From Vulcanimicrobiales bacterium (GTDB taxonomy: Bacteria; Vulcanimicrobiota; Vulcanimicrobiia; Vulcanimicrobiales; Vulcanimicrobiaceae), in contig JBBRLI010000004.1 of the NCBI GenBank assembly GCA_038231455.1, positions 128,001-192,000 on the forward strand: a DNA stretch of 64,000 nucleotides. The letters run 5' to 3'. The position numbers were made by a program, and so were the translations under genes. The notes under the pieces are model-generated. The model had not been told where the DNA came from, did not search any database, and saw nothing but the letters and a program-made list of their open reading frames with translations. Numbering within the stretch: position 1 is the stretch's first letter; each line of letters opens with the position of its first letter. Shown piece by piece: positions 9,798 to 56,259 of this stretch.

Positions 9798-11207
9798 TTG
9801 GACGCATCGTTGCCAGCTCGCCTTCGCCTCCTCTTTGCTGCCGTCATCGTCTTGCTCGCCTCGCTCGGAGGCGCCGCCTATATCAGCCGAGCGTCGGCCG
9901 ACACGGCGCCTACGCTTGCCGGGAACGCAAGCGGCATCGACCTGCGTTCGCTCTCGCTTGCCGGGCGCGATACCAACCAGCAGATGCTCGACATGTCGTT
10001 CCAGCGCGTTGAAGACGTCTTCTACAAACCGGTCAACGCGCAGACCCTGCTCAGCGGTGAGCGCAAGGCGCTCATCGATTTCCTGAAGTCGCGCAAGGTG
10101 AAGAACCCAAGCGTCCCCGCAATGACGGCGACGGGCGATCAGATGCACGATCTCTCGGTCGCGCAGTCCACGGTCAAAGCCGTCGAAGCGCTCTATCCGA
10201 AATCGGCAACGAAAGCGGAATACACGCAGTACGCGATCGCCGGTATCATGAGTTCGCTCAACGATCCGTATACGACGTATCTAACGAAGCACGACATCAA
10301 CGGATTGCAAGAGCAGCTCAAAGGCGGCGACTTCGGCGGCATCGGCGTCTACATCCAGCAGGATCCGAAGACCAAGAACATCCTCGCGCAGCCGATCGAT
10401 GGAAATCCCGCGATAAAAGCGGGCGTGAAGATCGGCGATGTCATCGACCGTGTCGACGGTAAGGCCGTGCGCGGTATGAAGCTCGACTCCGTCGAGAGCA
10501 TCATCCGCGGCCCGATCGGCAGCGTCGTTTCGCTCGACGTGCATGGCATGACGAATAAGGCTCCGCGAACGGTGAAAGTCACGCGCGCGCAAGTTCACGT
10601 TCCGTCGATTCTTGCAAAGAACGAGAACGGGATCGAATACGTGCGCCTGGCTGACTTCGGTCAGAGCTCCGCCGAAGAAGTGAAGAACGCGCTGCTCGAG
10701 GGCAAGAAGCACAACGTCCACGGCTACATTCTCGATCTGCGGTACAACGGCGGCGGCCTTTTGGATGCCGCTGTTGACATCAGCTCGCTCTTTATCAAGA
10801 GCGGTACGATCGTCTCCACGATCGACCGCGCCGGCAACAAAGAATCCAAAGCCGCCACGGGCGATGCGATCGGGACGCTGCCGCTTGTGATTCTCGTCAA
10901 TCGCTACACGGCCAGCGCATCGGAGATCACCGCAGGCGCGGTGCAAGATTATCGCGTCGGCACGCTGGTCGGCGAGAAAACATTCGGGAAAGGCGTCGTA
11001 CAGAGTCTCTACAATTTGCCCGACGCATCCGCTCTGAAAATCACGACGGCGCGTTACGTCACGCCCCTCGGACGCGACATCCACCACAAAGGCATCGTGC
11101 CCGATGTCGTCGTTCCACAGCGCGTCGATATTCCGCTCATCGACGGCCCCGGTGACAAACAACTCGCCGCTGCAAAAGCGATCATCAATCGCAAAGGGAA
11201 ATCGTGA
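9798..11207 (+). CDS. ctpA: Carboxyl-terminal processing protease, S41 family (copy 1)
   Basis: DPYTTY, GGIG PDZ entry, LDLRYNGGG, ASASE, TFGKGVVQ. Confidence 0.92.
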   Translation: MDASLPARLRLLFAAVIVLLASLGGAAYISRASADTAPTLAGNASGIDLRSLSLAGRDTNQQMLDMSFQRVEDVFYKPVNAQTLLSGERKALIDFLKSRKVKNPSVPAMTATGDQMHDLSVAQSTVKAVEALYPKSATKAEYTQYAIAGIMSSLNDPYTTYLTKHDINGLQEQLKGGDFGGIGVYIQQDPKTKNILAQPIDGNPAIKAGVKIGDVIDRVDGKAVRGMKLDSVESIIRGPIGSVVSLDVHGMTNKAPRTVKVTRAQVHVPSILAKNENGIEYVRLADFGQSSAEEVKNALLEGKKHNVHGYILDLRYNGGGLLDAAVDISSLFIKSGTIVSTIDRAGNKESKAATGDAIGTLPLVILVNRYTASASEITAGAVQDYRVGTLVGEKTFGKGVVQSLYNLPDASALKITTARYVTPLGRDIHHKGIVPDVVVPQRVDIPLIDGPGDKQLAAAKAIINRKGKS

Positions 11208-12583
11208 AACGCATCATTCCGCTCGCCATCATCCTGACGCTGCTCGCAACGACGACGCACGCGCCCGCTGCCGCCCCGATTCTCGGTCAATCCGAGCGTG
11301 AAGCGCTGGTTACGAGCTACGAACATCTCGTCGGTGACTTCTATAAGAAAGTCGACGGCGGCGCTGCCGTTACCGGCGCACACGATTCACTCATTGCGTT
11401 TTTGAAAAAAAAGGGCATCGCAAATCCGACGATCTCGCCGGTGAGCGTCGGCGCTGACGACAACGTCAACGAGCGCGAACTCCAGCGCGAAGTAGCAGCC
11501 GCGGTTACGACGTACGGTGCCAAATTCGGCGCCCGCGATTTGACGTACGCAGCGCTCGATGGCGTGCTCGGTTCGGTCAAAGACAAATACACAGTGTTCC
11601 TTACGCCCAAGCAATTTGCCGACCTCAACGAAGGACTCGACGGTGGCGCGAACTTCGGCGGCGTCGGCCTCGCCTATCACGCCGATTCGCCCGACGACAA
11701 AACGGTAACGGGCGTGAGCGGCGTGCACGTGGAGAATGTCATTCCCGACGGACCGGCCGATAAAGCCGGCGTGCTCACCGGCGATATCATCACTGCCGTT
11801 GACGGCCATCTCATCAAAGATCTCGATCACTCAAGCGCCGAGAAACTCTACGCGGCGATCACGAAACTCTTGCGCGGCGACGCGAACACCGCGGTCACAC
11901 TAAGCATCATTCGCGCCGACGGACCGATCGCACCGATCGTGGTCACCCGCGCGATGATCCATCCGCCAAGCGTGTACTCAAAGCTGCTGCCCAGCGGTAT
12001 CGGCTATGCGCAGCTCACCGTCTTCGGCCAAGCTACAGCAAACGAACTCACCACCGCCCTCACGCGCCTGCAAGCGCAGGGCGCAAAAGCCTACATCCTC
12101 GATCTGCGCAACAACGGCGGCGGATACCTCACGACGGCCGTCGACGTCAGCTCGAAGTTCGTTGCGAGCGGTCCGATCGTCTCGGTCGAATCGCGCGCGG
12201 GCAACAACACCGAATACGATGCGGAGAATACGGCCGTAAAACCGCTGCCGCTCGCCGTGCTCGTCAATCGCTATACCGCATCGGCTTCAGAGATCACCGC
12301 GGGCGCGATTCAGGATAGCGGTGTCGGAACGCTCATCGGCGAGAAGACCTACGGGAAAGGCGTCGTCCAAACGATCTTCCCGATGCGCGATGGCTCGGCG
12401 ATCAAGATCACAACGCAGCGCTACTTCACACCGCATGGCCGCGATATCAACGGCGTCGGTATTCAGCCGGACGTCGCCGCGGTGCAGAACAAAAACTACC
12501 GACTCGGCGATCCCACCGCTGACGACGTGCTCAAACAGGCTGTCGGCTTTCTCCAGGGGAAAATTACCGCACTCAGTCAGTAA
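11204..12583 (+). CDS. ctpA: Carboxyl-terminal processing protease, S41 family (copy 2)
   Basis: LDLRNNGGG, ASASE, TYGKGVVQ; GTGA overlap with copy 1. Confidence 0.92.
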   Translation: MKRIIPLAIILTLLATTTHAPAAAPILGQSEREALVTSYEHLVGDFYKKVDGGAAVTGAHDSLIAFLKKKGIANPTISPVSVGADDNVNERELQREVAAAVTTYGAKFGARDLTYAALDGVLGSVKDKYTVFLTPKQFADLNEGLDGGANFGGVGLAYHADSPDDKTVTGVSGVHVENVIPDGPADKAGVLTGDIITAVDGHLIKDLDHSSAEKLYAAITKLLRGDANTAVTLSIIRADGPIAPIVVTRAMIHPPSVYSKLLPSGIGYAQLTVFGQATANELTTALTRLQAQGAKAYILDLRNNGGGYLTTAVDVSSKFVASGPIVSVESRAGNNTEYDAENTAVKPLPLAVLVNRYTASASEITAGAIQDSGVGTLIGEKTYGKGVVQTIFPMRDGSAIKITTQRYFTPHGRDINGVGIQPDVAAVQNKNYRLGDPTADDVLKQAVGFLQGKITALSQ

Positions 12584-42161: not shown

Positions 42162-44885
42162 TTAGAAGCGGACGGCGAAGTTCACGTCTTCACGATTTTG
42201 CGTGAAGTTGAACGTCGGCAGGACGTTGTCCGTGTATTTCTGCTGACGGAAGAACGTCGTGATCGAGCTGTTGGTCTTCGGAATATTGTACGTCGCGCCG
42301 ATCTGATACTGATCTTTGCGTTCGTCCATATTCTGTCCGATGGTGGTGCCGTACGCACCGCGATAGCGCTGCGTATTGTAGTCGAAGTTCAGCGAGACGT
42401 CTTTGGTCACCGGCAGTGCTGCCGACGCCGCGTACGTTACGTGATACATATCGACGTAGTTGGGATAGAACGGGACCTTGCTGCCGCCGGTCGCTCCGAA
42501 TTGCGAGCGCGGGTCGGGCGGGAGATTCGCTGCGGCCGCAGCGATCGCGGCGGGGTCGAACGACTGCGTGCCGGGATTGATCGGGTAGTACTGGTAGGCC
42601 GTCGTGTCTTTGCGCGAGAGATGCTCGACGCCGGCCGTCAGGTTGACCGCGACCTTCTGTGAGAAGACCGGGAGGCTAAAGGACGCGCCGCCTTCGATTT
42701 TGTCGAAGTTTTCTTTAGTCGAGCTGTAGTAGCTCGGGCCATAGACGAGCGGACCGAAGCCGTTTGCGCGCAGCTCGTTGAGATGCTGTGCGTTGAGACG
42801 ACCCTGAACCGTGAGATCGCCGATCTTGATCGGCGTGTTGACGGTCAGCGTTTCACCCTGCGTGTTGGGGGCGAAGTTCGAGAAATACTGCGGTCCGGAT
42901 GCGACGAACGGGTTGAACAGCGGATAGATGAACGTGAGGTTCGGGTTACCCGCCGTTTTGACGCCGTTGCCCGCCGTGAACTGCGAATCGAACTGCTGGT
43001 TGATACCCAGGTTGTTGCCGAATCCGAAGAACTGCGGGTAGTACGAGAGACGGTAGAACGTGAAGAGCTGCGGCGCGTTACCGAAGTAACGAATCGGCGC
43101 ACCCGAGAAGAAGTTCGGTCCGACCGACTGGTACTGCAGCGATGCAGTGACTTGGTAGACCTTGAAGCGCAGGCCGAGGACGCCCGCGGTGTCGGTCGTG
43201 GCAGCGACGTTGCGGTAATCCGCGCTGTACTTGCTGCCGGCGATTTCGCCGAAGAGGATCGGATGCGCGCTCTTGTCCGAGAACGTGAACGGCAACGGCG
43301 CTTGGAAATCAAGGCCGAAGACCGTGTCGCTGACGGCGGTGAAGCCGCAGTTACACGCCTGGAACGTGTTGGTCTGGTCGCCTGAGGTGTAGAGCTGGTC
43401 GTCATCCCAGAGACGGTTGAACGACAAGCCGACTTCGGCGCCCGCCAGACCCTTGATCTTGTGGTTGATACGCGCGTTCACGTCGTAGCGCTGGTAGTTC
43501 GTATTGTTGTTGTACGTGAGGCCGACATACGTGATCGTGACTTGCGAGCCCGCCGGAAGCGGAGCGGCGAAGACGACGGCGTTGAGGTTCTCATTGAACG
43601 TGAAGCCCGGAAGTGCGACGGCGCCGCCGCCGACTTGCTGGCCTTGCGCGTTATACAGCGCACCGTTGTAAGCCGAAATATAGACCGTACCGGTGACGGC
43701 TTTGCGATCCAGGAAAACCTGGGTCAGCGCGCCCGTACCTGAAGTGAAGGTGTTCGAACGAAGCGCACCGGCCGATGACTGCGCCTGACCCGGCTGCAGG
43801 TAGCCCGTTTGCGGGCGAACCGTGAAGAACAGGTAGTTATTCGCGCCGTAAATGCCATTGGGATCCGAAACGCCGGTGTTCGTATTGAGCAACACTTGAT
43901 CCAGCCGCATGAAGCTGACCTGGAACTGGGTGAGGCCGTTGATCGTACCGGTGAAGTTGAAGCCCTTGCCGTACGGGTTGACCGGGTTTTCGTAGCCGGG
44001 GCCGGTCGAGAGGCCGCCATCGCTTGCGCGGTAGGCGAGGCCTGTACGCGAGCTCAGGATATTGTCGAGCTGCCCGTCGCGGATCTGGAGGTTGCTGAGA
44101 TTACCGGCTTTCGCCACGTTGACGACGACGTCGGGATAGAAATTCGTGCCGGTCTGCGTGCTAAATTCACCGCCGTAGCCGTAGCCCAGGATGTGAATCG
44201 GAAGCGAAATCGTCAGGTTCTCGTTGATTGCGTACGAGAACGTAAACTTGTCGTCCAGGCGGATGAGCGTTCCCGGGCCAGCCTGCTCCAGCGGACTGTT
44301 GCTGGAGGGTGAGGTGAGGAACGCGTTGACGAACGGATCGACGCCGCCGGTGCGACCGTTAGCTGCGGCACCGCCGTAATACAAGGTCTGCGTTGCGCCG
44401 GTCGTGTTCACGATCGACTTTGCCGGAGTAACGCGCTGACGCGATGTGTTGTTCGGCAGAATCGTGCCGTGGAACTGAACGGACTGCGCGAACTTCGTGC
44501 GCTTGTCCAGCGCGTCGAGGGCGTCCTCAACGTTGGTCACGCGAACGCCCAGCGAATCGAGCTCATCTTTGAAAGCATCGATCAGCTTCTGCAGCTTGTC
44601 GAGGTCCGCTTTCGAAGGGGTCTGCGAGACGTTGAGATTCACGCGTTGGATGATGCGGCTGATGATGACCGCGATCTCGTAACGCGTAAGCGGGCGATCG
44701 CCTTTGAAAGTGCCGTCGGGATAGCCTTCGATGAATCCGTCCGCCGCGAGCGACTGAATGGCCTGATAGGCCCAGTGCGTCGAGGGGACGTCTACGAACG
44801 GCGTAGCGGCGGCGCCCTGGCCCATGGCGATGACCGAGCCTAGGCTCAGGCCGGCCATGAGGACCAGGGTTGCGAGACGCTTCAT
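42162..44885 (-). CDS. SLH domain + coiled coil + beta-barrel outer membrane protein (OmpM-like)
   Basis: FVDVPSTHWAYQA..GYPDGTFKG..TRYE SLH motif, coiled coil, aromatic/Gly-rich beta region, C-terminal Phe; GGAGG SD. Confidence 0.85.
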   Translation of the reverse strand: MKRLATLVLMAGLSLGSVIAMGQGAAATPFVDVPSTHWAYQAIQSLAADGFIEGYPDGTFKGDRPLTRYEIAVIISRIIQRVNLNVSQTPSKADLDKLQKLIDAFKDELDSLGVRVTNVEDALDALDKRTKFAQSVQFHGTILPNNTSRQRVTPAKSIVNTTGATQTLYYGGAAANGRTGGVDPFVNAFLTSPSSNSPLEQAGPGTLIRLDDKFTFSYAINENLTISLPIHILGYGYGGEFSTQTGTNFYPDVVVNVAKAGNLSNLQIRDGQLDNILSSRTGLAYRASDGGLSTGPGYENPVNPYGKGFNFTGTINGLTQFQVSFMRLDQVLLNTNTGVSDPNGIYGANNYLFFTVRPQTGYLQPGQAQSSAGALRSNTFTSGTGALTQVFLDRKAVTGTVYISAYNGALYNAQGQQVGGGAVALPGFTFNENLNAVVFAAPLPAGSQVTITYVGLTYNNNTNYQRYDVNARINHKIKGLAGAEVGLSFNRLWDDDQLYTSGDQTNTFQACNCGFTAVSDTVFGLDFQAPLPFTFSDKSAHPILFGEIAGSKYSADYRNVAATTDTAGVLGLRFKVYQVTASLQYQSVGPNFFSGAPIRYFGNAPQLFTFYRLSYYPQFFGFGNNLGINQQFDSQFTAGNGVKTAGNPNLTFIYPLFNPFVASGPQYFSNFAPNTQGETLTVNTPIKIGDLTVQGRLNAQHLNELRANGFGPLVYGPSYYSSTKENFDKIEGGASFSLPVFSQKVAVNLTAGVEHLSRKDTTAYQYYPINPGTQSFDPAAIAAAAANLPPDPRSQFGATGGSKVPFYPNYVDMYHVTYAASAALPVTKDVSLNFDYNTQRYRGAYGTTIGQNMDERKDQYQIGATYNIPKTNSSITTFFRQQKYTDNVLPTFNFTQNREDVNFAVRF

Positions 44886-45109: not shown

Positions 45110-45541
45110 TTACCGCGACTTGGAAAAGTCGCCCAGCGGGCCATCGTCTTTCTTTATATAGCGCTCGGCGATGAGGAGTGCGGCGTAGTCGTCGATCGGG
45201 CGGTCCGGGAGGAGCATTCCGCGGGGGATCAGGCGCCGCCAGCCGCGCGGGGGGTGGTCAACGAAGAACCGGGCGCGGGCCCGCAAGGTCGTCTCGCGCT
45301 CGTCGACCAGCGTATACGGTAAGGCGACCCGATCGAGCGCTGCCCCGACGAAGGCAGCGTTTGTGCCGCGGCCCAGCGCCACGGTTTCAATCGCATAACC
45401 ACCGGCGAGGCGAGCAAGCTCGCGGTCGAGATCGTCGATGAGAATGATGCCGATCGCGATCGGCGGCTCGCCGCAGGCGCGAACGACCGCATAGCCGCAC
45501 TTGCGCGTCCCGGGATCGATTCCCAGCGTCAACCCCGCCAC
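45110..45541 (-). CDS. YqgF/RNase H-like resolvase-family protein
   Basis: LGIDPGTRKCG, VDE..TT..AR, PIDDYAA. Confidence 0.8.
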   Translation of the reverse strand: MAGLTLGIDPGTRKCGYAVVRACGEPPIAIGIILIDDLDRELARLAGGYAIETVALGRGTNAAFVGAALDRVALPYTLVDERETTLRARARFFVDHPPRGWRRLIPRGMLLPDRPIDDYAALLIAERYIKKDDGPLGDFSKSR

Positions 45542-46476
45542 TAGCGCGCTCCGCTTATTCCGAAGTCGAGCCGGAGCGAGGTCGTGTGCGGATAGACATC
45601 GTCGACGGCTTTGGCGACCACCCGGTACTTGCCGCGCGCGTGGCTGAGCTGCTGGAGGAGGGCCGTGAGCTGGGTCTGGTTGATGAGCGGCAGTTCCAAA
45701 AAGACCGCCGGGACACCGCGCACGGCCATGACTTGCCGGGCCGCGGCAACCAAGTCCGCGTAGTTGAACGGCGTCCCGCCCGCGACATCGGTCGATGCGA
45801 GCACCTCGCCAGCGCGCGCGAGCCGCTTGTCGGCGTAGGCTTCGAACGAGAAACTCAGCTGGTCGCCGCGGAAGATATTGCGGTCGGCCACCGGCAAGAG
45901 CAGAACGGGATCCACGCGGTCATTATCGGCGACGTCCGCGAGTTGCTGAACGAGCAGCTTACGCACTTCGGGGTCGGTCGATTTCTTTTTGTTTGGAATG
46001 AGCGCGTACGGCGGCTTTGCAAAGCGGGCATTCGCCGCGCGAACCGTTTCATCGAAGAAGTCGGAGAACGTCTTGAGCTGCACGTCGACGGGTTGGTCTT
46101 TATTGAAGACGACGAAATTGACATAGATCGGCGAAAACTTCGAGAGGACGATGCCCCGGTTGCGCGTCGTGTCGAGCTCGCGCTCTTGTGCGGCGGCTTG
46201 CGCCTGCAGCGCATGGATGCGCGCGTTGATCTCGCCCAGGCGAAAGAACGCCGTTCGAACGGATTCGGAGGCGATGAGGGCGGCGACCGTGACGGAGAGC
46301 GCGATGAGCATCCCCGTTCCGACGGCGACGATCGTCGATGTGTACTTCGGCCGAAGTCCGAAGAGCGTCAGTCGACGGCGGCCGACTTGATGGCCGACGC
46401 GATCGCCGACGTAGGCAACGACGCCCGCGACGATCACGATAAAGAGCGCGATGAGGATACCGGGCAAAAATGTCAT
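45541..46476 (-). CDS. DUF3084 family protein
   Basis: AYVGDRVG..VGRRRLTLFGLRPKYT; ATGA overlap with the lptF/G stop. Confidence 0.8.
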   Translation of the reverse strand: MTFLPGILIALFIVIVAGVVAYVGDRVGHQVGRRRLTLFGLRPKYTSTIVAVGTGMLIALSVTVAALIASESVRTAFFRLGEINARIHALQAQAAAQERELDTTRNRGIVLSKFSPIYVNFVVFNKDQPVDVQLKTFSDFFDETVRAANARFAKPPYALIPNKKKSTDPEVRKLLVQQLADVADNDRVDPVLLLPVADRNIFRGDQLSFSFEAYADKRLARAGEVLASTDVAGGTPFNYADLVAAARQVMAVRGVPAVFLELPLINQTQLTALLQQLSHARGKYRVVAKAVDDVYPHTTSLRLDFGISGAR

Positions 46477-47591
46477 GCGCCCGATGCCCGTCGCAGCAGC
46501 CAGAGGCCGATGCCGGTAAAGAGAACGTTCGGCGTCCAAGCCGCGATAAATGCCGCCGGACCGCCAAGCTCGCCAATCGACGCAAAGATGGTGACGATCA
46601 CGTAGTACACAAAGACGATTGCGACGGCAAGGCCAAATCCCAGCGACGCCCCGCCGCCGCGAGTGGGCCGCAGGCCGAAGGGAACGGCGATGAGCGCAAA
46701 GACGAATGCGGCGAAGGGCCGGGCGGCTTTTGCTTCATAGGTGGCCCGAAACTGATTCTCTTGAAGCGGCGTGAGCTGACTTTGGTCGAGCTGCTGCTTG
46801 ATCTGCGCACGGGACATCTCTTCGGGATTCGAGAGCGTCGCCCGCTTCGCAATCTCGCTCGGCGGCTCGCCAATATCAACGCGCAATTTGGGATCGGTGC
46901 TCGTGGCCGAGAGCGAACCGTCCGGCGCAATATGGTAGATCGTCGCATCGACGAACGACCACGTCGGCGCAACGTAATTCGCTTTGTCGCTGAAGATGAT
47001 CTCTGAGGGGCGCTGGTCGCGATCGTATTGGATGATCGTCACGTGCTGCAAGGTTTGCGTGGTCGGATCGAGCGCGGCGGCGTTGGTCAGTTGACGACCG
47101 CCGCCGGGGAGCGGGATTGCGATATTGAGGTTGCTCGTAATCGGTGAGAGCTTCTTGATCACCGCTTCGCGCACATAAGCCGCCCGGTCGGTCGCAAGCG
47201 GCACGACTTGCTCTTGTAATACAAGCACGATCACCGAGGTGAAGAACCCAACGACGAGCAGCGGGGTCACGATACGAATGAGGCTAATGCCACCCGCTTT
47301 CATCGCCGTGATCTCGCTCTCGCCCGAGAGACGTCCGAGCGAGAGTAAGACGCCAAGGAGCATCGCCATCGGAATGACGTAGAGCAAATACTGCGGCATG
47401 AGCAGCAAGAAGTATTGCATCGCCGCCCACAGCGGCGCGTGTTCGTCCGAGACAAGTTTGCCGAGCGCTATTAGATTGGTCGCGGTGAAGATCAGCGTAA
47501 ACGCCGAAAACCCAAACGCGAACGGACCGCCGAGTTCGCTAACCATATAGCGGTCCATAATCGTGATGCGCCGCTGCGCGCTTACCGCCAA
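46473..47591 (-). CDS. LPS export permease LptF/G
   Basis: MDRY..EL..PF, RLSGESEITAMKAGGIS, AAWTPN; start uncertain (TTG 47591 or ATG 47558). Confidence 0.88.
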   Translation of the reverse strand: MAVSAQRRITIMDRYMVSELGGPFAFGFSAFTLIFTATNLIALGKLVSDEHAPLWAAMQYFLLLMPQYLLYVIPMAMLLGVLLSLGRLSGESEITAMKAGGISLIRIVTPLLVVGFFTSVIVLVLQEQVVPLATDRAAYVREAVIKKLSPITSNLNIAIPLPGGGRQLTNAAALDPTTQTLQHVTIIQYDRDQRPSEIIFSDKANYVAPTWSFVDATIYHIAPDGSLSATSTDPKLRVDIGEPPSEIAKRATLSNPEEMSRAQIKQQLDQSQLTPLQENQFRATYEAKAARPFAAFVFALIAVPFGLRPTRGGGASLGFGLAVAIVFVYYVIVTIFASIGELGGPAAFIAAWTPNVLFTGIGLWLLRRASGA

Positions 47592-47613
47592 GGTGAGGCC
47601 TTGCGCGGAGCGA

Positions 47614-48357
47614 TCATAACCGGAAACCTTCGCCAAGATAGAACTTGCGCGCGAGTTCGGAATTGAGCACGTCATCGGCGCTGCCGGAGACTTCGATCCG
47701 GCCGTTGTTGAGAATGTAGGCCCGATCGACGATCGCGAGCGTCTCGCGCACTTGGTGGTCGGTGATCAAGACGCCGAGGCCCTTATCGCGCAACTGCCGG
47801 ATCATCGCCTGAATGTCGGCAACGGCAATCGGATCGATGCCGGTAAACGGTTCGTCGAGCAAGAGAAACGCGGGTTCCGTCGCGATCGCGCGTGCAATTT
47901 CGACGCGGCGGCGCTCGCCGCCCGAGAGCGAATCGCCTCGCGCATCGATAAAGCGCGCGAGTCCGAATTCATCGAGCAATGCGGGCAACCGTTCTTCTTG
48001 CTCTTCACGCGAGACGCCGTTCATCTCCCAGATCAACCGGATGTTGTCGCCGACAGAGAGTTTGCGGAAGATCGAATTCTCTTGCGCGAGATACCCGATA
48101 CCGGCCCGCGCACGCATGTGCATCGGCGCGCCGGTCAAATCGAAATCGCCGCCCGCACGTTCGAGCACGACGCGTCCGTCATCCGGCTTCACCAAGCCAA
48201 CGACCATGTAGAACGTCGTCGTTTTCCCCGCGCCGTTGGGACCGAGCAAGCCGACGACTTCGCCGCGACGCACGTCCGCACTCACGCCGTCCACGACCGC
48301 GCGTTTGCCGTAGCTCTTCTTGAGCGACGTGATGACGATGCGTTGCTCGTCGATCAT
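47614..48357 (-). CDS. lptB: LPS export ABC ATPase LptB
   Basis: GPNGAGKTTTFYM, GIGYLAQE.SIFRKL, LSGGERRRVEIAR, DEPFTGIDPI. Confidence 0.95.
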   Translation of the reverse strand: MIDEQRIVITSLKKSYGKRAVVDGVSADVRRGEVVGLLGPNGAGKTTTFYMVVGLVKPDDGRVVLERAGGDFDLTGAPMHMRARAGIGYLAQENSIFRKLSVGDNIRLIWEMNGVSREEQEERLPALLDEFGLARFIDARGDSLSGGERRRVEIARAIATEPAFLLLDEPFTGIDPIAVADIQAMIRQLRDKGLGVLITDHQVRETLAIVDRAYILNNGRIEVSGSADDVLNSELARKFYLGEGFRL

Positions 48358-48896
48358 CGCGCAATCGTCCGGATGTGCGCGTCTTCCAAGCGAACGTTCC
48401 CGTCGATCACGTCGCCCGTGATGCGATCGCCGCCCGGACTCGTCACGACGACATGGCCCTCGCCGTGGAGGTGTTCGTTGTCGCTCGTGTAGCGGAGTCG
48501 GTCGCAGGTCATGAGGGCGCCCGCCTGCGTGCGCGTTACTACTCCACCAGTCATCACGAGGGTTTTACTGCTTTCATCCACGGTCGCCTTTGGCGCATCG
48601 GAGGTCATCGTGCGCCCGCTCGCGTCGTAAAACTCCACGTGCGGCTGCGTAAAGACACCGGTACTATGGCCCGCGCCGTCGCGCGCGCCCGTGTACGAGG
48701 GCGCCGTGAGGTAGTAGGCCTTGCGTTTCCCATGCATACCGGTGATCGTGGGCTGCTTGCCCTCGCCTCCCGCGGCACTGACGCGAATCGGTTCGACGGT
48801 CGGCGACCCAAGGGGTCTGGGACTTGTGCTCGGGGCTGGGGCATGGGGCCGAGCGCAGCCCGCAAGCAGCACGAGCACGACGAGCCTACGCCACAC
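48354..48896 (-). CDS. lptC: LptC/LptA-like beta-jellyroll protein
   Basis: Lipobox LAGC, beta-strand-rich sequence, coupled to lptB. Confidence 0.7.
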   Translation of the reverse strand: MWRRLVVLVLLAGCARPHAPAPSTSPRPLGSPTVEPIRVSAAGGEGKQPTITGMHGKRKAYYLTAPSYTGARDGAGHSTGVFTQPHVEFYDASGRTMTSDAPKATVDESSKTLVMTGGVVTRTQAGALMTCDRLRYTSDNEHLHGEGHVVVTSPGGDRITGDVIDGNVRLEDAHIRTIAR

Positions 48897-50097
48897 GTTC
48901 GGCGAGTCCAACGCGCAGCGCCGCGATCGCAAGCGCCGAAAACAGAAACCAGATCATAAACGTTATACTCACCGAATTGAGCAGCGTGTGCAGCGTCGCC
49001 GCGCCGATTCCGCAGGTGATCCCGTACGCAAGGATCCGGTTTGGCCTGGGCGCGCCGGCGCCGATCGCGCGATAGAGCCGCACGAAGGCAACGCCCCCGT
49101 ACACGAGGGCCGCCACACCCAGAATCCCCGTTTCATCGAGGATCGAAAGCAACATGTTGTGCGGGTCGTACCCAACGGGCGTGGTCACCGGCGGCCCATC
49201 CGGCGGCCGAAAAACATCGTATGTCCGGTGGTAGGCAAGCGGCCCCATCCCGCTCAGTGGAAACCGCAGGAACGTCGTCGCGCCGGTCGCCCAGGCGGCC
49301 GTCCGTGCAAACGTATCTTGCGGGTTGTGGTGCCCAGCGCCGACGCCAAGTTCCAACGCAGCGGCAACGGCAGCGACGACGGCACCGCCGATGACGACGC
49401 GGCGACTCGCGAACCGTGCGAGGAAAAACGCCGCTCCGATTCCGCCGGCGATCAATCCGCTTCTCGAGAACGTGAACGCAAGTGTCACCGCGCAGAGCAG
49501 CAGTGCCGTTCCCGCGAGGATCCGCATCCCGCGCTCGCGCGTCGCGCCCAAGACACCCGCCGCGGTCCCGGCGATAACGAGTGTGCCCGCGGCGAGTTCG
49601 TTGGGATTGAGAAACGTTCCGACCGCGCGGCCATTGTTGACGACGGCAAGGGCGACGGGCCATTTGAGTGCCGCAAGAACGAGCGCGAGTGCGAACGCGA
49701 CGATCGAGGTGGCGAAGAGCCAGCGATAGATCGTCTGCGGCGCGCCGGCTTCGCCGTAATAGCGTTCGAGACCGTAATGCGAGATCGCATACGAGAGCAG
49801 CGCAAGCGAAAAGACGACGCCCGTGATTGGCTCGAAGCCGAGCGCCCCGCCAAGGAGCGTCACGATAAAATTCGCGGCGACGGGCCAGAAGAGCGGTCCG
49901 AGCGGCTGAAGTCGGCGCGTAACGCCGATGCCGACAACGACCGTGAGTGCGAGAATACTGATAAGGATCGCAAGCGTTGGCGCGTACGGGACGAGCGGCG
50001 CAACGGGCGGACGTGATTGGTCGAGCACCGCGAACATCCCGTACGCCGGCATCGTGCAATACAAGAGCGCGAGCGCCAAGACGACAATCCGGTTCAC
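48886..50097 (-). CDS. O-antigen ligase family (Wzy_C) membrane protein
   Basis: RAVGTFLNPNELA, TFSRSG, PHNMLL..ETGILG. Confidence 0.85.
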   Translation of the reverse strand: MNRIVVLALALLYCTMPAYGMFAVLDQSRPPVAPLVPYAPTLAILISILALTVVVGIGVTRRLQPLGPLFWPVAANFIVTLLGGALGFEPITGVVFSLALLSYAISHYGLERYYGEAGAPQTIYRWLFATSIVAFALALVLAALKWPVALAVVNNGRAVGTFLNPNELAAGTLVIAGTAAGVLGATRERGMRILAGTALLLCAVTLAFTFSRSGLIAGGIGAAFFLARFASRRVVIGGAVVAAVAAALELGVGAGHHNPQDTFARTAAWATGATTFLRFPLSGMGPLAYHRTYDVFRPPDGPPVTTPVGYDPHNMLLSILDETGILGVAALVYGGVAFVRLYRAIGAGAPRPNRILAYGITCGIGAATLHTLLNSVSITFMIWFLFSALAIAALRVGLAERVA

Positions 50098-51230
50098 GCG
50101 GCGTGCTCCGCGATTCGCACGATCTCTTCGGCGATCCGCGCCGCGCCGCCGCTCCCACCCATGCGCTTGCGACCGATCGCGCCCATGCGCTCGCGACGCC
50201 CGGCATCATCGAGCAGGGCGACGATCGCGCGCGCGGCGCCATCGACATCACCGGGAACGATCGTCAGCGCCTCGCCGAGTAATTTTGCTTGCCGCATGCG
50301 ATACCAACCGGCTGCGCGCGAGGTGCTCGGGGTTTCGAGCGCTACGACCGGGAGCCCGCAGCCCGCCGCCGCTTCGTTTGCCGTTCCGGCCTGACCGATT
50401 GCAACCGTTGCAGTTGCGAGCAGCGTCCCCAGTCCGTCGCGCACGCCCCGCAGCATCAGCGGTTCGGTTGCGCGAAAGGGCGTGGAGCTCGACTCCTCGC
50501 GCAAGCTCCAACCGTCTGCGCGCAAGGCCTCGATGAATCGCCCGGCGTCGAGACCCGGCGCAAGCGACATCGCTGCCTCCACGTCGGCATGTAATTCTCC
50601 AACACGGCGGGCGACCGCGGCCAGAAGTACCGCATCGCCGTAGGCGGGCTCGCGCGAGCCCGGCAAAAGCGCAAGACGCAGTGATTTTGTCCAAACGAGC
50701 GAGGCTGCATCATCGTGTAGCAGGTCGACGATGACGTTGCCCGGTGCTCGTGCTTCTACGCCGTGCGCGCATAAATCGACCGCCGTCGCTTCGTCACGCA
50801 CGAAGACGGCGCGCGCCCGACGCAGCACCCGCCGTTCGAGCGAACCGTACGGAACGACGTGCACGCTCTTCGCCGTCCCGACGTAGACGATCGGCAACCC
50901 GGCAAACGTCGCGAGCAACAGCGCGTACACATCACCAACGGCAACGACGCAATCGTACGCCGAGTGGGCAGCCCGCAAGAACGCGATCTGGCCGCCGAGC
51001 AACGACAAAAATCCGGCGCGCAAGTCGCGCGAAAAAGCGGCGAGATTGCCCATCGCTACCAGGCCGCCGCTGGGCATTGCGCGCTGCGGACCGACGTCGA
51101 CGAACGACGCATCGCCAAAGCCCGCACCGACAAGCGCGAGGTGGTGCGTCTGGGCGCGCGGGAGTTCGCGCGCGATTCGCGCCGCGATCGCCGCTTCACC
51201 GTGGCCGTTCGTCACGAAGAGGATGCGCAC
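50094..51230 (-). CDS. Lipid-A-disaccharide synthase-related GT-B protein
   Basis: NGHGE, MPSGG, LLPGSR, AGTANE. Confidence 0.75.
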   Translation of the reverse strand: MRILFVTNGHGEAAIAARIARELPRAQTHHLALVGAGFGDASFVDVGPQRAMPSGGLVAMGNLAAFSRDLRAGFLSLLGGQIAFLRAAHSAYDCVVAVGDVYALLLATFAGLPIVYVGTAKSVHVVPYGSLERRVLRRARAVFVRDEATAVDLCAHGVEARAPGNVIVDLLHDDAASLVWTKSLRLALLPGSREPAYGDAVLLAAVARRVGELHADVEAAMSLAPGLDAGRFIEALRADGWSLREESSSTPFRATEPLMLRGVRDGLGTLLATATVAIGQAGTANEAAAGCGLPVVALETPSTSRAAGWYRMRQAKLLGEALTIVPGDVDGAARAIVALLDDAGRRERMGAIGRKRMGGSGGAARIAEEIVRIAEHAA

Positions 51231-51970
51231 TATGCGTGAACCGCATCGAGTAGCGGCACAAGATCGAAGCGCGTGATACGCGCACGCTCCGGGGTCAGCG
51301 TAAGCTCGGTGCGCGAGACAAATCGGCCGTACGGTCCCGCGTGCACGATCGGGACCTCACCGACATACTCCGGTTGCGGCAGCGTGTCATGACTGTGTCC
51401 GCCGAGAAGTAAATCGATGCGCGGGACGCGGCGCGCGAGCTCGCGGTCGGCACGAAGTCCAAGATGCGAGAGCGCGACGAGCGTGACGTCCGCGGGCGTC
51501 GATGCAGCGATGTGTTCGGCGACGACGAACGGATCGAGAAACCGCCAACCGAAGATCTTCTCCCAAAAACTGCCGACCGGATATTGCGGCACCAGCAAGC
51601 CGAAAAAGCGCACGTCCCGCGAGCGGATACCATCATCGTACCGCAGCGTCTTTTCGGCCACGAACGGCAGCGTGCGGCCTTTGGTATCGACGAGATTCGC
51701 ACACAAGAGCGGATGCTGCATCAAACGAACGCGCGCTTCAACGGCACCAAAGAGGTAGTGGAATTCGCGATTTCCCATCGCTTGCAGATCGTAGCCCGCC
51801 GCATCGATCTCCGTGACGATGGGTTCGCGGCGGTGAAAGACGGTTTGCGAACCGCGCAGTGAGTCGCCGCAATCGACGAGTAGGCCGGGCTCTGCTGCTC
51901 GCAGGGCGTGCAACTTCGCTGCGATCTGGCCGTTGTCGTGCAGGTCGGAGGTATGATAGATCCGGATCAT
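51230..51970 (-). CDS. Calcineurin-like metallophosphoesterase (5'-nucleotidase N-domain type)
   Basis: SDLH, DCGD, MGNREF, LSHLG, GGHSH. Confidence 0.85.
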   Translation of the reverse strand: MIRIYHTSDLHDNGQIAAKLHALRAAEPGLLVDCGDSLRGSQTVFHRREPIVTEIDAAGYDLQAMGNREFHYLFGAVEARVRLMQHPLLCANLVDTKGRTLPFVAEKTLRYDDGIRSRDVRFFGLLVPQYPVGSFWEKIFGWRFLDPFVVAEHIAASTPADVTLVALSHLGLRADRELARRVPRIDLLLGGHSHDTLPQPEYVGEVPIVHAGPYGRFVSRTELTLTPERARITRFDLVPLLDAVHA

Positions 51971-53073
51971 GTCGCGGCGAGGCCCAATGCGTACACGGCG
52001 CAGCGGTCGAGCGTCGCGGGATCGCCGAGTTCGGCGCGTAGCGCGGCGAACTGCGCATGTTGCATGCTCGCATCCGCAAGCAATCGCTCGAGCGCAGATG
52101 CAAGTGCGGCGGACGTTGCCGCAGCTTGAATGAATTCCGGCACGACCTCGTCGTTCAGGATCAAATTTGGGATCGTGATAAAGCGGCCCGAATAGACGCG
52201 TAAGGCGATCTTGTATTGCGCATCTGAGAGCACGTAAAGCGCGATTGTCGGCACGTCAAGAAGCGCCGCTTCGAGCACCGCCGTCCCCGAGGCGATGGCG
52301 GCGACGTCGGCCGCGAGGAGCGCTGGCCGCGCACCGCGCACGATCCTTACGTCGAGATCGGTATACGCACGAAGCGCCGCACGCAGGGACTGCTCCGCAT
52401 CGTCGTCGGCTGCTCCTAAGACGATCTTGAGGTCGGGACGCGTCTGGCGAAGTGCGCGCGCGGCGGCAAAGAGGGGTGCGGTGTGTCGGTCGATTTCGCT
52501 GCGACGACTACCGGGGAGGATTGCAATCGTACCGCCACCCGAGGGTGCCGGCGCGCGCGGTTCGCGCGGCTCGATCGTCGCAACGAGCGGGTGTCCGAAG
52601 TGCGCGATCGGCAGGTCGAGCGACCGATAGAAATCGCGCTGATGCGTAAAGGGCGTGAGCGGTGCGCAAAGCCGTGCGACTTGGCGCGCGCGCTTCGCAT
52701 TATCCAGCCACGCCGCAGGCGGAAAATAATACAGAATCCGGCCGCGGTATCCGATGCGCCGCAGCGTACTTGCGAGCCGTACGTTAAACGCGCCAAAGTC
52801 GATGAGCACGAGCAGATCGGGCGGATCGCGCTTCAGTTCGAACGCGGTGAGGAACATGATCGAGAGCAACTTGGGAATTTTTCCAAGCGCGTCGATCGGA
52901 CCCATCGAGGCCCAGCCGCGCGTCGACCAGCGCAGCGTAAATCCGGCAGCACGCATGCGCTCGTTGCCGATCCCCTCACACTGCAAGTCCGCGACATGCG
53001 CGCGCATTGCGCGAGCAAGGTCGACTGCCGCAAGTTCTCCGGACGCCTCGCCCGTCGAGAAAAAGACGCGCAT
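51967..53073 (-). CDS. lpxB: Lipid-A-disaccharide synthase LpxB
   Basis: GEASGE, ID..FN, GHP, LPGSRRSEI, ASGTAVLE, PN, VPEFIQ. Confidence 0.9.
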   Translation of the reverse strand: MRVFFSTGEASGELAAVDLARAMRAHVADLQCEGIGNERMRAAGFTLRWSTRGWASMGPIDALGKIPKLLSIMFLTAFELKRDPPDLLVLIDFGAFNVRLASTLRRIGYRGRILYYFPPAAWLDNAKRARQVARLCAPLTPFTHQRDFYRSLDLPIAHFGHPLVATIEPREPRAPAPSGGGTIAILPGSRRSEIDRHTAPLFAAARALRQTRPDLKIVLGAADDDAEQSLRAALRAYTDLDVRIVRGARPALLAADVAAIASGTAVLEAALLDVPTIALYVLSDAQYKIALRVYSGRFITIPNLILNDEVVPEFIQAAATSAALASALERLLADASMQHAQFAALRAELGDPATLDRCAVYALGLAAT

Positions 53074-53081
53074 CGCGCGCG

Positions 53082-53849
53082 CTACTTCATGATCCCGCGG
53101 GGCGATTCGGCTTCGACGAAGGCGAGCACCGCGCGACCCGCGTCGGTTTTCACTGTCTCTTTGAGCGCGATGACCGCTTGCGAGATGTTGCGGTCCGAAC
53201 GATAGATCGTCTTGTACGCATCTTTGAGATCCGAGAGCACCTCGGCGGAAAACGCATGGCGCCGGAGGCCCGGCGAATTGAGTCCGTAGACTTCCGCCGG
53301 ATTGCCTTCGGCAAGAAAATACGGCGGCAGATCGCGCACCATCTTCGTATAGCCGCCGACGAAACTGTATGCACCGACGCGTACGAACTGGTGGATTCCG
53401 GCCATGCCGCCGATACCCGCGTAGTCTTCGACCGTCACATGGCCGGCGAGCTGCGCGAGATTCGACATCGTGACGCCGTTTCCAACGCGGCAGTTGTGCG
53501 CGATGTGCACGTAGGCGAGCAGCAGACAGTCGTTACCGATCGAGGTGACTTCGCCCTCACCCGTCGCGCGGTGGACGCTTGCGTATTCGCGTATGACGGT
53601 CCGGTCGCCGATCGTCGTATAGGCGATCTCATCGCTTGCTTTGCGGTCTTGCGAACTCGCGCCGAGCGACGCGAACGGATGCACGATCGTCTCTTCGCCG
53701 ATCGTCGTGTGACCGTTGACGACGACTTGCGCGAGCAATTTCGAACCCGCGCCGATCGAGACGTGTTCGCCCACGATACAAAACGGGCCGATCTCGGCGG
53801 TCGCAGCGATGTTGGCGTTCGGGTGAACGATTGCAGTCGGGTGAATCAT
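53082..53849 (-). CDS. lpxA: UDP-GlcNAc O-acyltransferase LpxA
   Basis: MIHPTAIVHP, hexapeptide repeats, IREY.SVHR, HIAHNC, HQFVRVG. Confidence 0.95.
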   Translation of the reverse strand: MIHPTAIVHPNANIAATAEIGPFCIVGEHVSIGAGSKLLAQVVVNGHTTIGEETIVHPFASLGASSQDRKASDEIAYTTIGDRTVIREYASVHRATGEGEVTSIGNDCLLLAYVHIAHNCRVGNGVTMSNLAQLAGHVTVEDYAGIGGMAGIHQFVRVGAYSFVGGYTKMVRDLPPYFLAEGNPAEVYGLNSPGLRRHAFSAEVLSDLKDAYKTIYRSDRNISQAVIALKETVKTDAGRAVLAFVEAESPRGIMK

Positions 53850-54319
53850 AGGTGGAGGATCGTCGCGTCCAGGCGGAACGCGCGCGGATCGATCGAGACG
53901 GAGAACATTAATTCGCCCGAGACGGCAAGCTCGCCATCGACGCGCGCTTCGGCCTGAACCCACCCGATGTTCTTGCGCGTTTTGGTCACGGTCGTGGTCA
54001 TCATGAAACAGTCTCCCGGCACGACCGGTCGTCGGAAACGCACTTTGTCGACGCCCACAAGGTACGTTACTTTGCGATGCATGTCGCCCGGGTTGAGCAC
54101 GGCGCACCCGCCCAGTTGCGCCATCGCCTCGATCATGTACACGCCGGGCATCAGGGGATTGCCCGGAAAATGCCCCTGCACCCACGGCTCGTTCGCGCTG
54201 ACGTTGCGGTAGCCGACGGCCCGAACGCCCGGAACGAGTTCCGTGATGCGGTCGATGAGCAACATGGGATAGCGGTGCGGCAAGATCGACATGATCTCGC
54301 GCACGTCGTGAATGGACAT
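53846..54319 (-). CDS. fabZ: 3-hydroxyacyl-ACP dehydratase FabZ
   Basis: LPHRYPMLLIDR, GHFPGNPLMPGV..EAMAQ. Confidence 0.95.
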   Translation of the reverse strand: MSIHDVREIMSILPHRYPMLLIDRITELVPGVRAVGYRNVSANEPWVQGHFPGNPLMPGVYMIEAMAQLGGCAVLNPGDMHRKVTYLVGVDKVRFRRPVVPGDCFMMTTTVTKTRKNIGWVQAEARVDGELAVSGELMFSVSIDPRAFRLDATILHL

Positions 54320-54320
54320 G

Positions 54321-55172
54321 CTAAGGAACGACGGCGGTAATCGGGCTGGCAGCGCTCCACGGTGCGAGCTCGCGCACCGCCGTGCAATGCAATTTGTGAC
54401 CGCTCTTGATCGCAATGACCTCGCACTGAGGATAGGCGCCCAAAAGCGCAAAGTCGCCGATCAGATCGAGGATCTTGTGGCGCGCGGGTTCGTCGCGCAT
54501 CCGCAGCGGTGCGAGCGGACCCTCGGGTCCGAACACCACGGCATTGTCGAGCGTGCCACCTTGCGCGAGCCCGCGGCGGATGAGTGCTTCGACTTCGTGC
54601 AAGAATCCGAAGGTTCGCGCGGGCGCAACTTCGGCAGCGTAGTTTGCCGGGTCGATCTCGACATCGACGAACTGCGAACCGATCGGCGCGGGATAGTCGA
54701 CGGTCATCCGCACGCGAAACGTTGAACTTGGCGTGACGATGAGCGTCTTGTCGCCGTCACGGAAGACCAGGGGCTCGGTGACGATGAAGCGCTGACGCGG
54801 TTCGGTGAGCGTTGCGGTGCCGACGGCGAGAATCGCATCGGCGAAAACTTTTGCGCTGCCGTCCATCACGGGAATCTCCGGTCCGTCAACCGCGATGAGA
54901 GCGTTGTCGACGCCCATTCCCACCATTGCGGAGAGCAGGTGTTCGACGGTCGAGACGGTGTGCTCGCCGCTTCCGAGCACCGTCGCGCGGCGCGTGTCGA
55001 CGACGTATTCGCCACGGGCCGGAAACGTGACCGCGTTATTGAGACGAAAGCTCAGGCCCGCCCCCGCGCGCGCGGGAAAAATGCGCACGCGAGCCGGCTG
55101 GCCCGTATGCAATCCGATTCCCGCAAACTCAATTGAGTCGCGTAAGGTCGCTTGAAGCTGCACTCGTCTCAT
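54321..55172 (-). CDS. lpxC: UDP-3-O-acyl-GlcNAc deacetylase LpxC
   Basis: GIGLHTG, TVEHLLSA, ARTFG, HKILDLIGD, GHKLH. Confidence 0.95.
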   Translation of the reverse strand: MRRVQLQATLRDSIEFAGIGLHTGQPARVRIFPARAGAGLSFRLNNAVTFPARGEYVVDTRRATVLGSGEHTVSTVEHLLSAMVGMGVDNALIAVDGPEIPVMDGSAKVFADAILAVGTATLTEPRQRFIVTEPLVFRDGDKTLIVTPSSTFRVRMTVDYPAPIGSQFVDVEIDPANYAAEVAPARTFGFLHEVEALIRRGLAQGGTLDNAVVFGPEGPLAPLRMRDEPARHKILDLIGDFALLGAYPQCEVIAIKSGHKLHCTAVRELAPWSAASPITAVVP

Positions 55173-55230: not shown

Positions 55231-56259
55231 TCACGCTTTGCGAGCGCTCTCTAAGGCATCGACCCGAGCGAACAGCTTTGGAAGATTCTTAAGGAACACC
55301 TGCCCTCGTACTTCGTCGCGGTGGTTGCGCGCCGGGCGACCCGAAACGAACGCACCGTCCGCAAGATCGTTCCAAACCGCGGTGCCGCCGGCAACCGTTA
55401 CGCGCGAGCCGATGGTAATGTGCCCGTTGAAGCCGCTCTGACCGCCGACGCGAACGTAGTCGCCAAGCGTCGTGGAACCGGAGATGCCGTTTTGCGCGGC
55501 AAGCGCCGAGTGTTTGCCGATCCGCACGTTGTGGCCGATCTGGCAAAGATTATCGATCTTCGTGCCCTCGCCAATGCGGGTCACGCCGGTCTGCGCGCGG
55601 TCGACGGTGGTGTTCGCGCCGATCTCCACATCATCGCCGAGTTCGACGATCCCGATCTGCGGAATCTTGCGCAGGCGTCCGTCCAAGAACGCCCATCCGA
55701 AGCCGTCCGATCCGATCACGGCGCCCGGCTGCAGTACGCAGCGCGCGCCGATCCGCGAACCATTCTCGATCACCACGCGCGCGTGCAAATAGGTCTGCTC
55801 GCCGATCGCAACGTCATCGCCGATCGCGCTGCCCGCGCCGAGGATGGCACCGGCACCAACGGTCGTACGCGCGCCAACGCTCACGTGCGGCCCGACGTAG
55901 ACATCGGCACCCACACGCGCAGATGGATCGACGGCGGCGGTGGGATGGACGAAGGGGCCTTGCGGACGCGGCGGCTCGAGTTCGGCCAAGAGGGCCGCAA
56001 GCGCGAGCCGCGTCGACTCGACGACGACGAGGGGCTTCGTCGGCGCGTCGACTTCACGTGCAAGTGCGGCATCGGTTAGAACAGCCGACGCCTTGGAGGC
56101 AAGGGCCGCCTTGAGATATGTCGCGTCGGTTGCGAACGTCATCGATCCGGGACCGACGTCCTCAATCGCGCGCAGACCCTCGATGAGGATCGTTCCATCC
56201 CCGATCACGCGACCGCCGGTACGCTCGGCGATTGCGGCAAGCGTACCGAGTCCGCTCAC
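55231..56259 (-). CDS. lpxD: UDP-3-O-acylglucosamine N-acyltransferase LpxD
   Basis: IGSDGFG, KIPQIG, DR, TKIDNLCQIGHN. Confidence 0.95.
   Translation of the reverse strand: MSGLGTLAAIAERTGGRVIGDGTILIEGLRAIEDVGPGSMTFATDATYLKAALASKASAVLTDAALAREVDAPTKPLVVVESTRLALAALLAELEPPRPQGPFVHPTAAVDPSARVGADVYVGPHVSVGARTTVGAGAILGAGSAIGDDVAIGEQTYLHARVVIENGSRIGARCVLQPGAVIGSDGFGWAFLDGRLRKIPQIGIVELGDDVEIGANTTVDRAQTGVTRIGEGTKIDNLCQIGHNVRIGKHSALAAQNGISGSTTLGDYVRVGGQSGFNGHITIGSRVTVAGGTAVWNDLADGAFVSGRPARNHRDEVRGQVFLKNLPKLFARVDALESARKA

Follow-up and report, generated by a model that had tools for sequence, protein, structure and literature searches.

An lpxB-linked GNRE metallophosphoesterase as a candidate fourth class of UDP-2,3-diacylglucosamine pyrophosphatase in Vulcanimicrobiales and their relatives

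The fourth step of lipid A synthesis, hydrolysis of uridine diphosphate (UDP)-2,3-diacylglucosamine, is indispensable and serves as a target for antibiotics. No other step of the Raetz pathway is known to be carried out by unrelated enzymes, as this one is by LpxH, LpxI, and LpxG; according to the literature, some bacteria that carry lipopolysaccharide (LPS) have none of the three. These are the sole enzymes named for the step in the available part of a 2025 review (PMC12444477), and a full-text literature search, in which supplementary tables (e.g., Additional file 1 of PMC3087551) were not covered, found no description of a fourth class. Here, we report on a stretch of 64,000 nucleotides from a Vulcanimicrobiales bacterium (assembly GCA_038231455.1, contig JBBRLI010000004.1, positions 128,001 to 192,000; "the window" means this whole stretch), in which a metallophosphoesterase gene lies between lpxB and a gene for an LpxB paralog of the TIGR03492 family. 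We propose its product, P0001, as a candidate fourth, independently recruited class of UDP-2,3-diacylglucosamine pyrophosphatase; we infer the activity, and regard the assignment as moderately probable. A preliminary description of the locus had this gene fill the step as a recruited enzyme: the computational checks all favored the idea, which is partly supported and is the best available reading, but its function is deduced and its coupling to TIGR03492 permits another substrate, so that the enzyme is presented as a candidate.

How does P0001 compare with the described systems? It resembles LpxH in several respects: both are cytoplasmic calcineurin-like metallophosphoesterases of ~240 residues built on a common set of five metal-binding blocks, P0001 is proposed to catalyze the LpxH reaction, and both have arginine for histidine in block 3 (GNRD in LpxH; GNRE in P0001, in which R68 may play the corresponding role). 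However, P0001 falls outside the LpxH families (TIGR01854 / NF003743), in the 5'-nucleotidase branch, its model has no helical lid insertion, and its gene sits inside an lpx cluster, whereas lpxH lies outside such clusters, according to an excerpt of PMC3087551. LpxG (Chlamydia CT461; NF033458) is likewise a metallophosphoesterase that was recruited independently to this step, in a lineage that has neither LpxH nor LpxI; as described in the accessible sections of PMC4807358, it was discovered through complementation of an E. coli lpxH mutant and, unlike P0001, which has no such helix and carries GNRE, is a ~37-kDa protein whose N-terminus bears a membrane helix and whose motif reads GNHD. LpxI (PF06230 / PF17930) acts at the same step, and lpxI also adjoins lpxB within the lpx cluster (PMC3087551, in part), but its fold and mechanism are unrelated to those of P0001. 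UshA, 5'-nucleotidase, and CD73 share with P0001 a homologous N-terminal catalytic domain and the same metal ligands; P0001 differs in being cytoplasmic, without the 5_nucleotid_C domain and signal peptide, and in its family the catalytic histidine is arginine and the aspartate three residues on is histidine or asparagine (GNREFH/N versus GNHEFD). Finally, the SoxB thiosulfohydrolase model (TIGR04486) gives the best NCBIfam score over the P0001 catalytic domain, 81.4 bits, but this is far below its cut-off of 550, and the C-terminal part of SoxB is absent.

The gene for P0001 shares bases with both of its neighbors:

51230..51970, minus strand: P0001, GNRE metallophosphoesterase, 246 residues, single-domain, 5'-nucleotidase-type; candidate UDP-2,3-diacylglucosamine pyrophosphatase
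51967..53073, minus strand: lpxB, lipid-A-disaccharide synthase (PF02684, 224.5 bits; TIGR00215, 200.7 bits, cut-off 190.25)
51967..51970, minus strand: ATGA, where the lpxB stop and the P0001 start overlap, read on the minus strand as ...GACATGATCC...
51228..51232, minus strand: TAGTG, in which the TIGR03492 gene's GTG start has one base in common with the P0001 stop TAG
50094..51230, minus strand: TIGR03492 "lipid-A-disaccharide synthase-related protein," LpxB paralog, 378 residues (228.2 bits, cut-off 219.2)

The ATGA overlap, first noted in the preliminary description, is read directly on the minus strand, and the 246-residue translation of the open reading frame (ORF) contains every motif listed there: D9-L-H11, G35-D36, G66-N67-R68-E69, C90-A91-N92, S168-H169-L170-G171, and G190-G191-H192-S193-H194. 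All five metallophosphoesterase blocks (D-x-H / GD / GN(H)(D/E) / H / GHxH) are thus present, with arginine for the histidine of block 3, which reads GNREFHY. Pfam Metallophos (PF00149) scores 26.2 bits, over its cut-off of 21.5, placing P0001 in the superfamily. Among NCBIfam models, the top match is the N-terminal half of SoxB and further matches are to the N-terminal halves of UshA-like and cyclic-nucleotide phosphodiesterase/5'-nucleotidase models, all far under their cut-offs; together they place P0001 in the 5'-nucleotidase/UshA/SoxB branch. The LpxH (TIGR01854, NF003743) and LpxG (NF033458) models are not among the NCBIfam matches at E <= 0.01, and Pfam gives no LpxI_N or LpxI_C match. 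The absence of a C-terminal domain and a signal peptide, also claimed earlier, was confirmed: a Pfam scan finds no 5_nucleotid_C (PF02872) and the chain stops at residue 246; there is no hydrophobic leader, since the N-terminus is strand 1 itself, with the DxH motif and nothing before it, and no membrane helix (maximum 19-residue Kyte-Doolittle mean, 1.26).

The structural evidence agrees. An AlphaFold2 model built on 38 relatives has a predicted local distance difference test score (pLDDT) of 96.2 and a predicted template modeling score (pTM) of 0.92; in Foldseek it comes closest to E. coli UshA/5'-nucleotidase and human CD73, in each case to the N-domain (TMq 0.76-0.80). A search of the PDB with the family profile finds 2z1a (E 7e-36), CD73 (~1e-35), and UshA (~5e-34), and aligns the P0001 GNRE opposite the GNHE of 5'-nucleotidases. 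Residues 96-165 of the model form strands 106-112 and 117-126 and short helices at 135-140 and at 147-157, an arrangement shared with the N-domains of 5'-nucleotidases. In the alignment of the 38 relatives, the metal ligands D9, H11, D36, N67, H169, H192, and H194 do not vary, and at least 90% of the sequences retain R68; the replacement of GNHE by GNRE, noticed initially in one protein, is therefore a family-wide signature and not a one-off substitution. A quick maximum-likelihood tree of 87 sequences sets the GNR-type proteins apart from ordinary GNHE 5'-nucleotidase relatives, used as the outgroup, with a Shimodaira-Hasegawa approximate likelihood ratio test (SH-aLRT) support of 97. These analyses show the fold, the intact metal ligands, and the GNRE signature.

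If P0001 is to fill the fourth step, are the known enzymes missing? The bacterium's own genome (93.67% complete, 106 contigs) has no match to LpxH (TIGR01854, NF003743) or LpxI (PF06230, PF17930) models, and the LpxG model (NF033458; cut-off 350) reaches no more than 16.6 bits, with a secreted CpdA-like protein. P0001 is the sole 5'-nucleotidase-type protein of this genome; its eight other metallophosphoesterases comprise, by resemblance, three of YfcE type, the secreted CpdA-like one, an SbcD-like, a purple-acid-phosphatase-like, a TIGR00282, and a PdeM protein. To look beyond one genome, we drew 101 genomes evenly from the GTDB phylum, representing 21 families and including 37 genomes of the window's own class; the NCBI labels of close relatives in this phylum include Vulcanimicrobiota, Eremiobacterota, and Armatimonadota. 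Neither LpxH nor LpxI_C was found in any of the 101 genomes, and no LpxG match exceeded its cut-off (in the window's own class, 0 of 37 matched even weakly), whereas lpxB is present in 97. The absence of lpxH, lpxI, and lpxG, for which the preliminary description had proposed a search with hidden Markov models (HMMs), thus holds for the genome and, at family cut-offs, for the phylum sample, leaving the enzyme as the only candidate for the step. A caution applies to such absences: six-frame HMM searches produced two false ones, of the phosphoesterase in genus g44 and of TIGR03492 in genus g34, and absences from these searches therefore want a second look.

Two later enzymes were also sought in the 101 genomes: LpxK gave one marginal match and WaaA none. 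Both lpxA, lpxC, lpxD, and lpxB and the Lpt genes are present in the phylum even though LpxK and WaaA were not found. The lipid A pathway of this phylum is thus devoid of 3-deoxy-D-manno-oct-2-ulosonic acid (Kdo) and of the 4'-kinase, like that described for cyanobacteria.

The enzyme is distributed, and linked to its neighbors, far more widely than one locus would suggest; both gene context and distribution are observed directly. Among 41 relatives up to the level of class, a single-protein search found it in 40 (of which G020, G022, and G036 are flagged as unpublished), and orthologue-quality matches to the family profile occur in 89 of the 101 phylum genomes. Four of the 12 apparent exceptions were re-examined, and all four have an ORF of 274-300 residues that adjoins TIGR03492 and matches the profile in two stretches. 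The supposed absence of the enzyme from genus g44 and from G100, where the best matches (~1e-52) fell on 520-residue paralogs, was, as these re-examined genomes show, an artifact. Of 80 Eremiobacterota loci, 78 have lpxB immediately upstream, so that the synteny with lpxB expected from the window is conserved, and 78 have TIGR03492 immediately downstream; judged by predicted starts, the lpxB stop overlaps the enzyme start in 42 of 78 loci and the enzyme stop overlaps the TIGR03492 start in 48 of 78. The usual gene order in the other classes runs from gnnA through lpxA, lpxB, a second LpxB-like gene, a gene for a methyltransferase with weak resemblance to LmtA, and a small ORF to the phosphoesterase and then TIGR03492; with coordinates read by eye, lpxB lies within 5 kilobases (kb) of the enzyme in ~40 of 51 genomes and TIGR03492 adjoins it in ~45 of 51. 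The coupling to lpxB proposed in the preliminary description is therefore real as regards overlap and synteny, but an equally tight or tighter coupling to the downstream TIGR03492 gene, evident from adjacency and three gene fusions, had been overlooked.

TIGR03492 is an LpxB paralog with no Pfam family of its own that occurs throughout the window's phylum; the full-text literature search, which excluded supplementary tables, found no description of it. It had seemed to be missing from genus g34 (0 of 3 genomes at E <= 1e-40), but this too was an artifact: tblastn places copies that are 55-58% identical directly downstream of the enzyme in both genomes checked, and the idea that the two genes occur separately in the phylum was withdrawn. 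We saw no phylum genome with the enzyme but without TIGR03492, or the reverse. In three proteins of 640-653 residues (P0146, P0278, and P0279), each encoded in a single clean reading frame, the enzyme and TIGR03492 are naturally fused; they come from low-GC and high-GC organisms, are 39-56% identical over 99% of their length, and all carry GNREFHY and score over the TIGR03492 cut-off. The AlphaFold2 model of P0146 (pLDDT 93.5, pTM 0.77) yields only 5'-nucleotidases in Foldseek. Apparent fusions of LpxB with the phosphoesterase (P0125, P0166, and P0226) contain both domains but are arginine-rich, frameshifted-looking translations of high-GC contigs; they were therefore treated as assembly artifacts, and as evidence of adjacency only.

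The genes found next to the enzyme in other classes include further LpxB homologs. A second LpxB-like gene (~390-420 residues) and an ICMT-family methyltransferase gene separate lpxB from the phosphoesterase at L183 (G041), L185 (G097), L186 (G056), L100, and L101; the methyltransferase weakly resembles Leptospira LmtA, a lipid A 1-phosphate methyltransferase (43-67 bits, cut-off 325). One family has a single ORF of 807-842 residues in which LpxB and the second LpxB-like domain are joined: L180 (G081), L181 (G043), and L182 (G098). Because genes for a GnnA-like UDP-N-acetylglucosamine 3-dehydrogenase flank lpxA in these classes, their lipid A may be based on 2,3-diamino-2,3-dideoxyglucose (GlcN3N).

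How would such an enzyme work? We envisage that P0001 would be a cytoplasmic dinuclear-metal pyrophosphatase that cleaves UDP-2,3-diacylglucosamine, or its GlcN3N analog, to uridine monophosphate (UMP) and lipid X; lipid X would then be the acceptor for LpxB and probably also for TIGR03492, both GT19 enzymes. Its origin may lie in 5'-nucleotidase/UDP-sugar hydrolases, of which it would have kept the N-terminal catalytic domain and lost the C-terminal nucleoside-binding domain along with the signal peptide. UshA cleaves UDP-sugars to UMP and sugar-1-phosphate, and since UshA and the 5'-nucleotidases are the closest solved relatives of P0001, this chemistry fits the proposed step. R68, which replaces the catalytic histidine of GNHE, is predicted to form a salt bridge with the leaving sugar-1-phosphate, in the manner of Arg80 in LpxH. 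The literature agrees with the earlier statement that LpxH has arginine at this position: Arg80 binds the lipid X phosphate (PMC5016852, available part), and arginine in place of histidine in block 3 of LpxH is also stated in an excerpt of PMC3087551.

Is the enzyme confined to one lineage, as was first assumed? This view proved too narrow. An exhaustive search revealed many stand-alone proteins of ~240 residues that are 30-50% identical to the enzyme; family members range from 233 to 276 residues. In the tree, clade A (support 92) corresponds to the window's phylum, with the motif GNRE[FL][HN]Y and the lpx/TIGR03492 context, and an arginine-bearing sister clade, clade B (support 89), comprises other lineages. 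In clade B, 17 metagenome loci have interpretable neighbors, and at four of them the enzyme directly follows Kdo-synthesis genes: kdsD-kdsC at L105, kdsC at L114 and L150, and kdsB-kdsA-kdsD at L133, with KdsC, KdsA, and KdsB scoring over their cut-offs. ArnT/PMT_2-like or LIC_10190-like membrane proteins are encoded near the enzyme at three loci (L109, L114, and L172). Several clade B contigs carry DUF1559/prepilin genes, a combination that we take to be typical of Planctomycetota. Clade B members beside Kdo genes and a phylum without LpxK and WaaA together imply that the step common to both lies between LpxA and LpxB; UDP-2,3-diacylglucosamine hydrolysis is the only LPS step that is common to both pathway types and known to use different enzymes. 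The finding is thus wider than first described: a phylum-wide, sometimes fused module with an LpxB paralog, plus a Kdo-linked arginine-bearing sister clade elsewhere. Metagenome loci L100-L103, considered as independent lineages, fall within the phylum's own clade (L103 is identical to G054); TIGR04486, tried as a proxy for the enzyme, matched 10 of 14 control genomes and was uninformative; and in a plasmid collection TIGR03492 had no match and the enzyme query met only SoxB and 5'-nucleotidases.

Several observations weigh against assigning P0001 to the fourth step. Counts over the 101 phylum genomes are not independent of one another, since these genomes are related. Weak LpxG-like metallophosphoesterases occur in 51 of them, in classes other than the window's own (at most ~84 bits per stretch, cut-off 350), and could in principle perform the step there. 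The P0001 model has no multi-helix acyl-chain-binding lid of the LpxH type and the nucleoside-binding C-domain is also absent, leaving no evident means of recognizing a UDP-lipid. At most of the clade B loci (13 of 17), the neighbors are unrelated to LPS (e.g., trpC, YHS/lgt, SMC, prfA, and relA). Across the phylum, the enzyme is coupled to TIGR03492 at least as tightly as to lpxB, and in G059, G054, and G047 (L187-L189) the enzyme-TIGR03492 pair is on a different contig than lpxB. TIGR03492 itself scores over its cut-off in the control genomes of Synechococcus elongatus and Deinococcus radiodurans, the latter of which has no match to an lpxB model, and NCBI-named members come from Halanaerobiales, Limnochordia, and other Bacillota; lpxI has been reported in Halanaerobiales (PMC5007114, in part). 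TIGR03492 is thus found in Deinococcus without an lpxB match and in LpxI-bearing groups, which makes it independent of this pathway gap; if the enzyme accompanies it there, the substrate is probably something other than UDP-diacylglucosamine.

Could P0001 then be a dedicated partner of TIGR03492, acting on another pyrophosphate-linked molecule, such as a UDP-linked lipid or sugar or the UDP by-product? In that case, it would not be a general lipid X former and the phylum's enzyme for the fourth step would lie elsewhere. The two genes form the most conserved pair (in 78 of the 80 Eremiobacterota loci, and in ~45 of the 51 genomes from other classes), which is present in all four re-examined enzyme exceptions and in two of the three apparent TIGR03492 exceptions, stays intact where lpxB is on another contig, and has given rise to three natural fusions; the occurrence of TIGR03492 in Deinococcus and in LpxI-bearing Firmicute groups points the same way. 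We nonetheless think this explanation, the main rival, rather unlikely: clade B members stand beside Kdo genes with no TIGR03492 seen within 5-6 kb, an essential step would be left without a candidate in 101 genomes, and fusion to an LpxB homolog is equally expected if the enzyme makes the acceptor of a GT19 enzyme. We also know of no bacteria that need a UDP-ase for glycosyltransfer.

Two other explanations start from the chemistry of the relatives. 5'-Nucleotidase relatives are also phosphomonoesterases, and a pathway without LpxK and WaaA resembles the cyanobacterial "four-enzyme" pathway; the enzyme might thus be a cytoplasmic lipid A or lipid X phosphatase that removes the 1-phosphate or 1-diphosphate, giving phosphate-poor lipid A as in cyanobacteria, whose LPS, according to the accessible part of PMC3087551, is devoid of phosphate and Kdo. 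This is improbable, given that replacement of the general-acid histidine by arginine marks a pyrophosphatase with a phosphate leaving group (LpxH) and not a monoesterase, that the LmtA-like gene adjoining the enzyme in other classes (weak, as noted above) implies retention of the 1-phosphate, and that the gap at the fourth step stays. Still less likely is the view that a cytoplasmic nucleotidase or UDP-sugar hydrolase with a housekeeping role has come to lie in the operon by chance. Source annotations do call the enzyme a 5'-nucleotidase, a UDP-sugar diphosphatase, or a cyclic-nucleotide phosphodiesterase, and it is the only gene of 5'-nucleotidase type in the genome; but its place between two GT19 genes is kept phylum-wide, with codon overlaps on both sides and recurrent fusions, the nucleoside-binding C-domain has been lost, and the His-to-Arg family stands apart from the GNHE 5'-nucleotidases in the tree.

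Among these explanations, we prefer a lipid X-forming pyrophosphatase, and the partnership with TIGR03492 can be accommodated within it. In a tentative extension, which we consider possible but doubtful as a whole, the enzyme and TIGR03492 would make up a two-enzyme module, fused in some organisms, within an LpxK- and Kdo-independent lipid A pathway: the fourth-class hydrolase would supply lipid X to LpxB as well as to TIGR03492, the latter of which would make a non-canonical lipid A backbone or the first core linkage. The GNR(E) class would then also fill the "missing LpxH" gap in several phyla, including planctomycete-like lineages, in which it follows kdsC/kdsD. If P0001 does carry out the fourth step, this would close the gap in a large soil phylum whose members are mostly uncultured (NCBI labels: Eremiobacterota and Armatimonadota), and perhaps in others as well; the enzyme would be a second, independent case of a metallophosphoesterase made into a sugar-nucleotide pyrophosphatase by a His-to-Arg switch; and TIGR03492, an LpxB paralog found also in cyanobacteria, Deinococcus, and diderm Firmicutes, would gain its first functional handle.

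The P0001 gene is part of a supercluster of outer-membrane genes on the minus strand, in the order TamB, BamA, two Skp/OmpH-like genes, lpxD, lpxC, fabZ, lpxA, lpxB, and the P0001 gene, followed by the TIGR03492 gene, a Wzy_C/O-antigen-ligase-like gene, an LptC-like gene, lptB, and lptF/G. The presence of lpxD, lpxC, lpxA, and lpxB, recognized at first sight, is confirmed by Pfam and NCBIfam, which add fabZ:

55231..56259, minus strand: lpxD (PF04613 and hexapeptide repeats)
54321..55172, minus strand: lpxC (PF03331, 301.7 bits)
53846..54319, minus strand: fabZ (PF07977, 103.8 bits)
53082..53849, minus strand: lpxA (NF003657, 322.5 bits; start set at MIHPTAIVH)
48886..50097, minus strand: Wzy_C / O-antigen-ligase-like membrane protein (PF04932, 57.6 bits; GTG start)
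46473..48932, minus strand: LptC-like, lptB, and lptF/G (PF06835, PF00005, PF03739), downstream and in the same direction

The stop of the TIGR03492 gene overlaps the start of the Wzy_C/O-antigen-ligase-like gene in a GTGA junction. Directly downstream of lptF/G and in the same orientation is a gene for a DUF3084 membrane protein (45541-46539, minus strand). Adjoining the Lpt genes is also a gene for a 907-residue protein (42162-44885, minus strand) that combines an SLH domain at the N-terminus with a long C-terminal part; it may be a tether of the OmpM-like kind that links the outer membrane to peptidoglycan in other Terrabacteria diderms. Elsewhere in the window, a tandem pair of genes (9798-12583, plus strand) encodes S41 (C-terminal processing) peptidases with PDZ domains.

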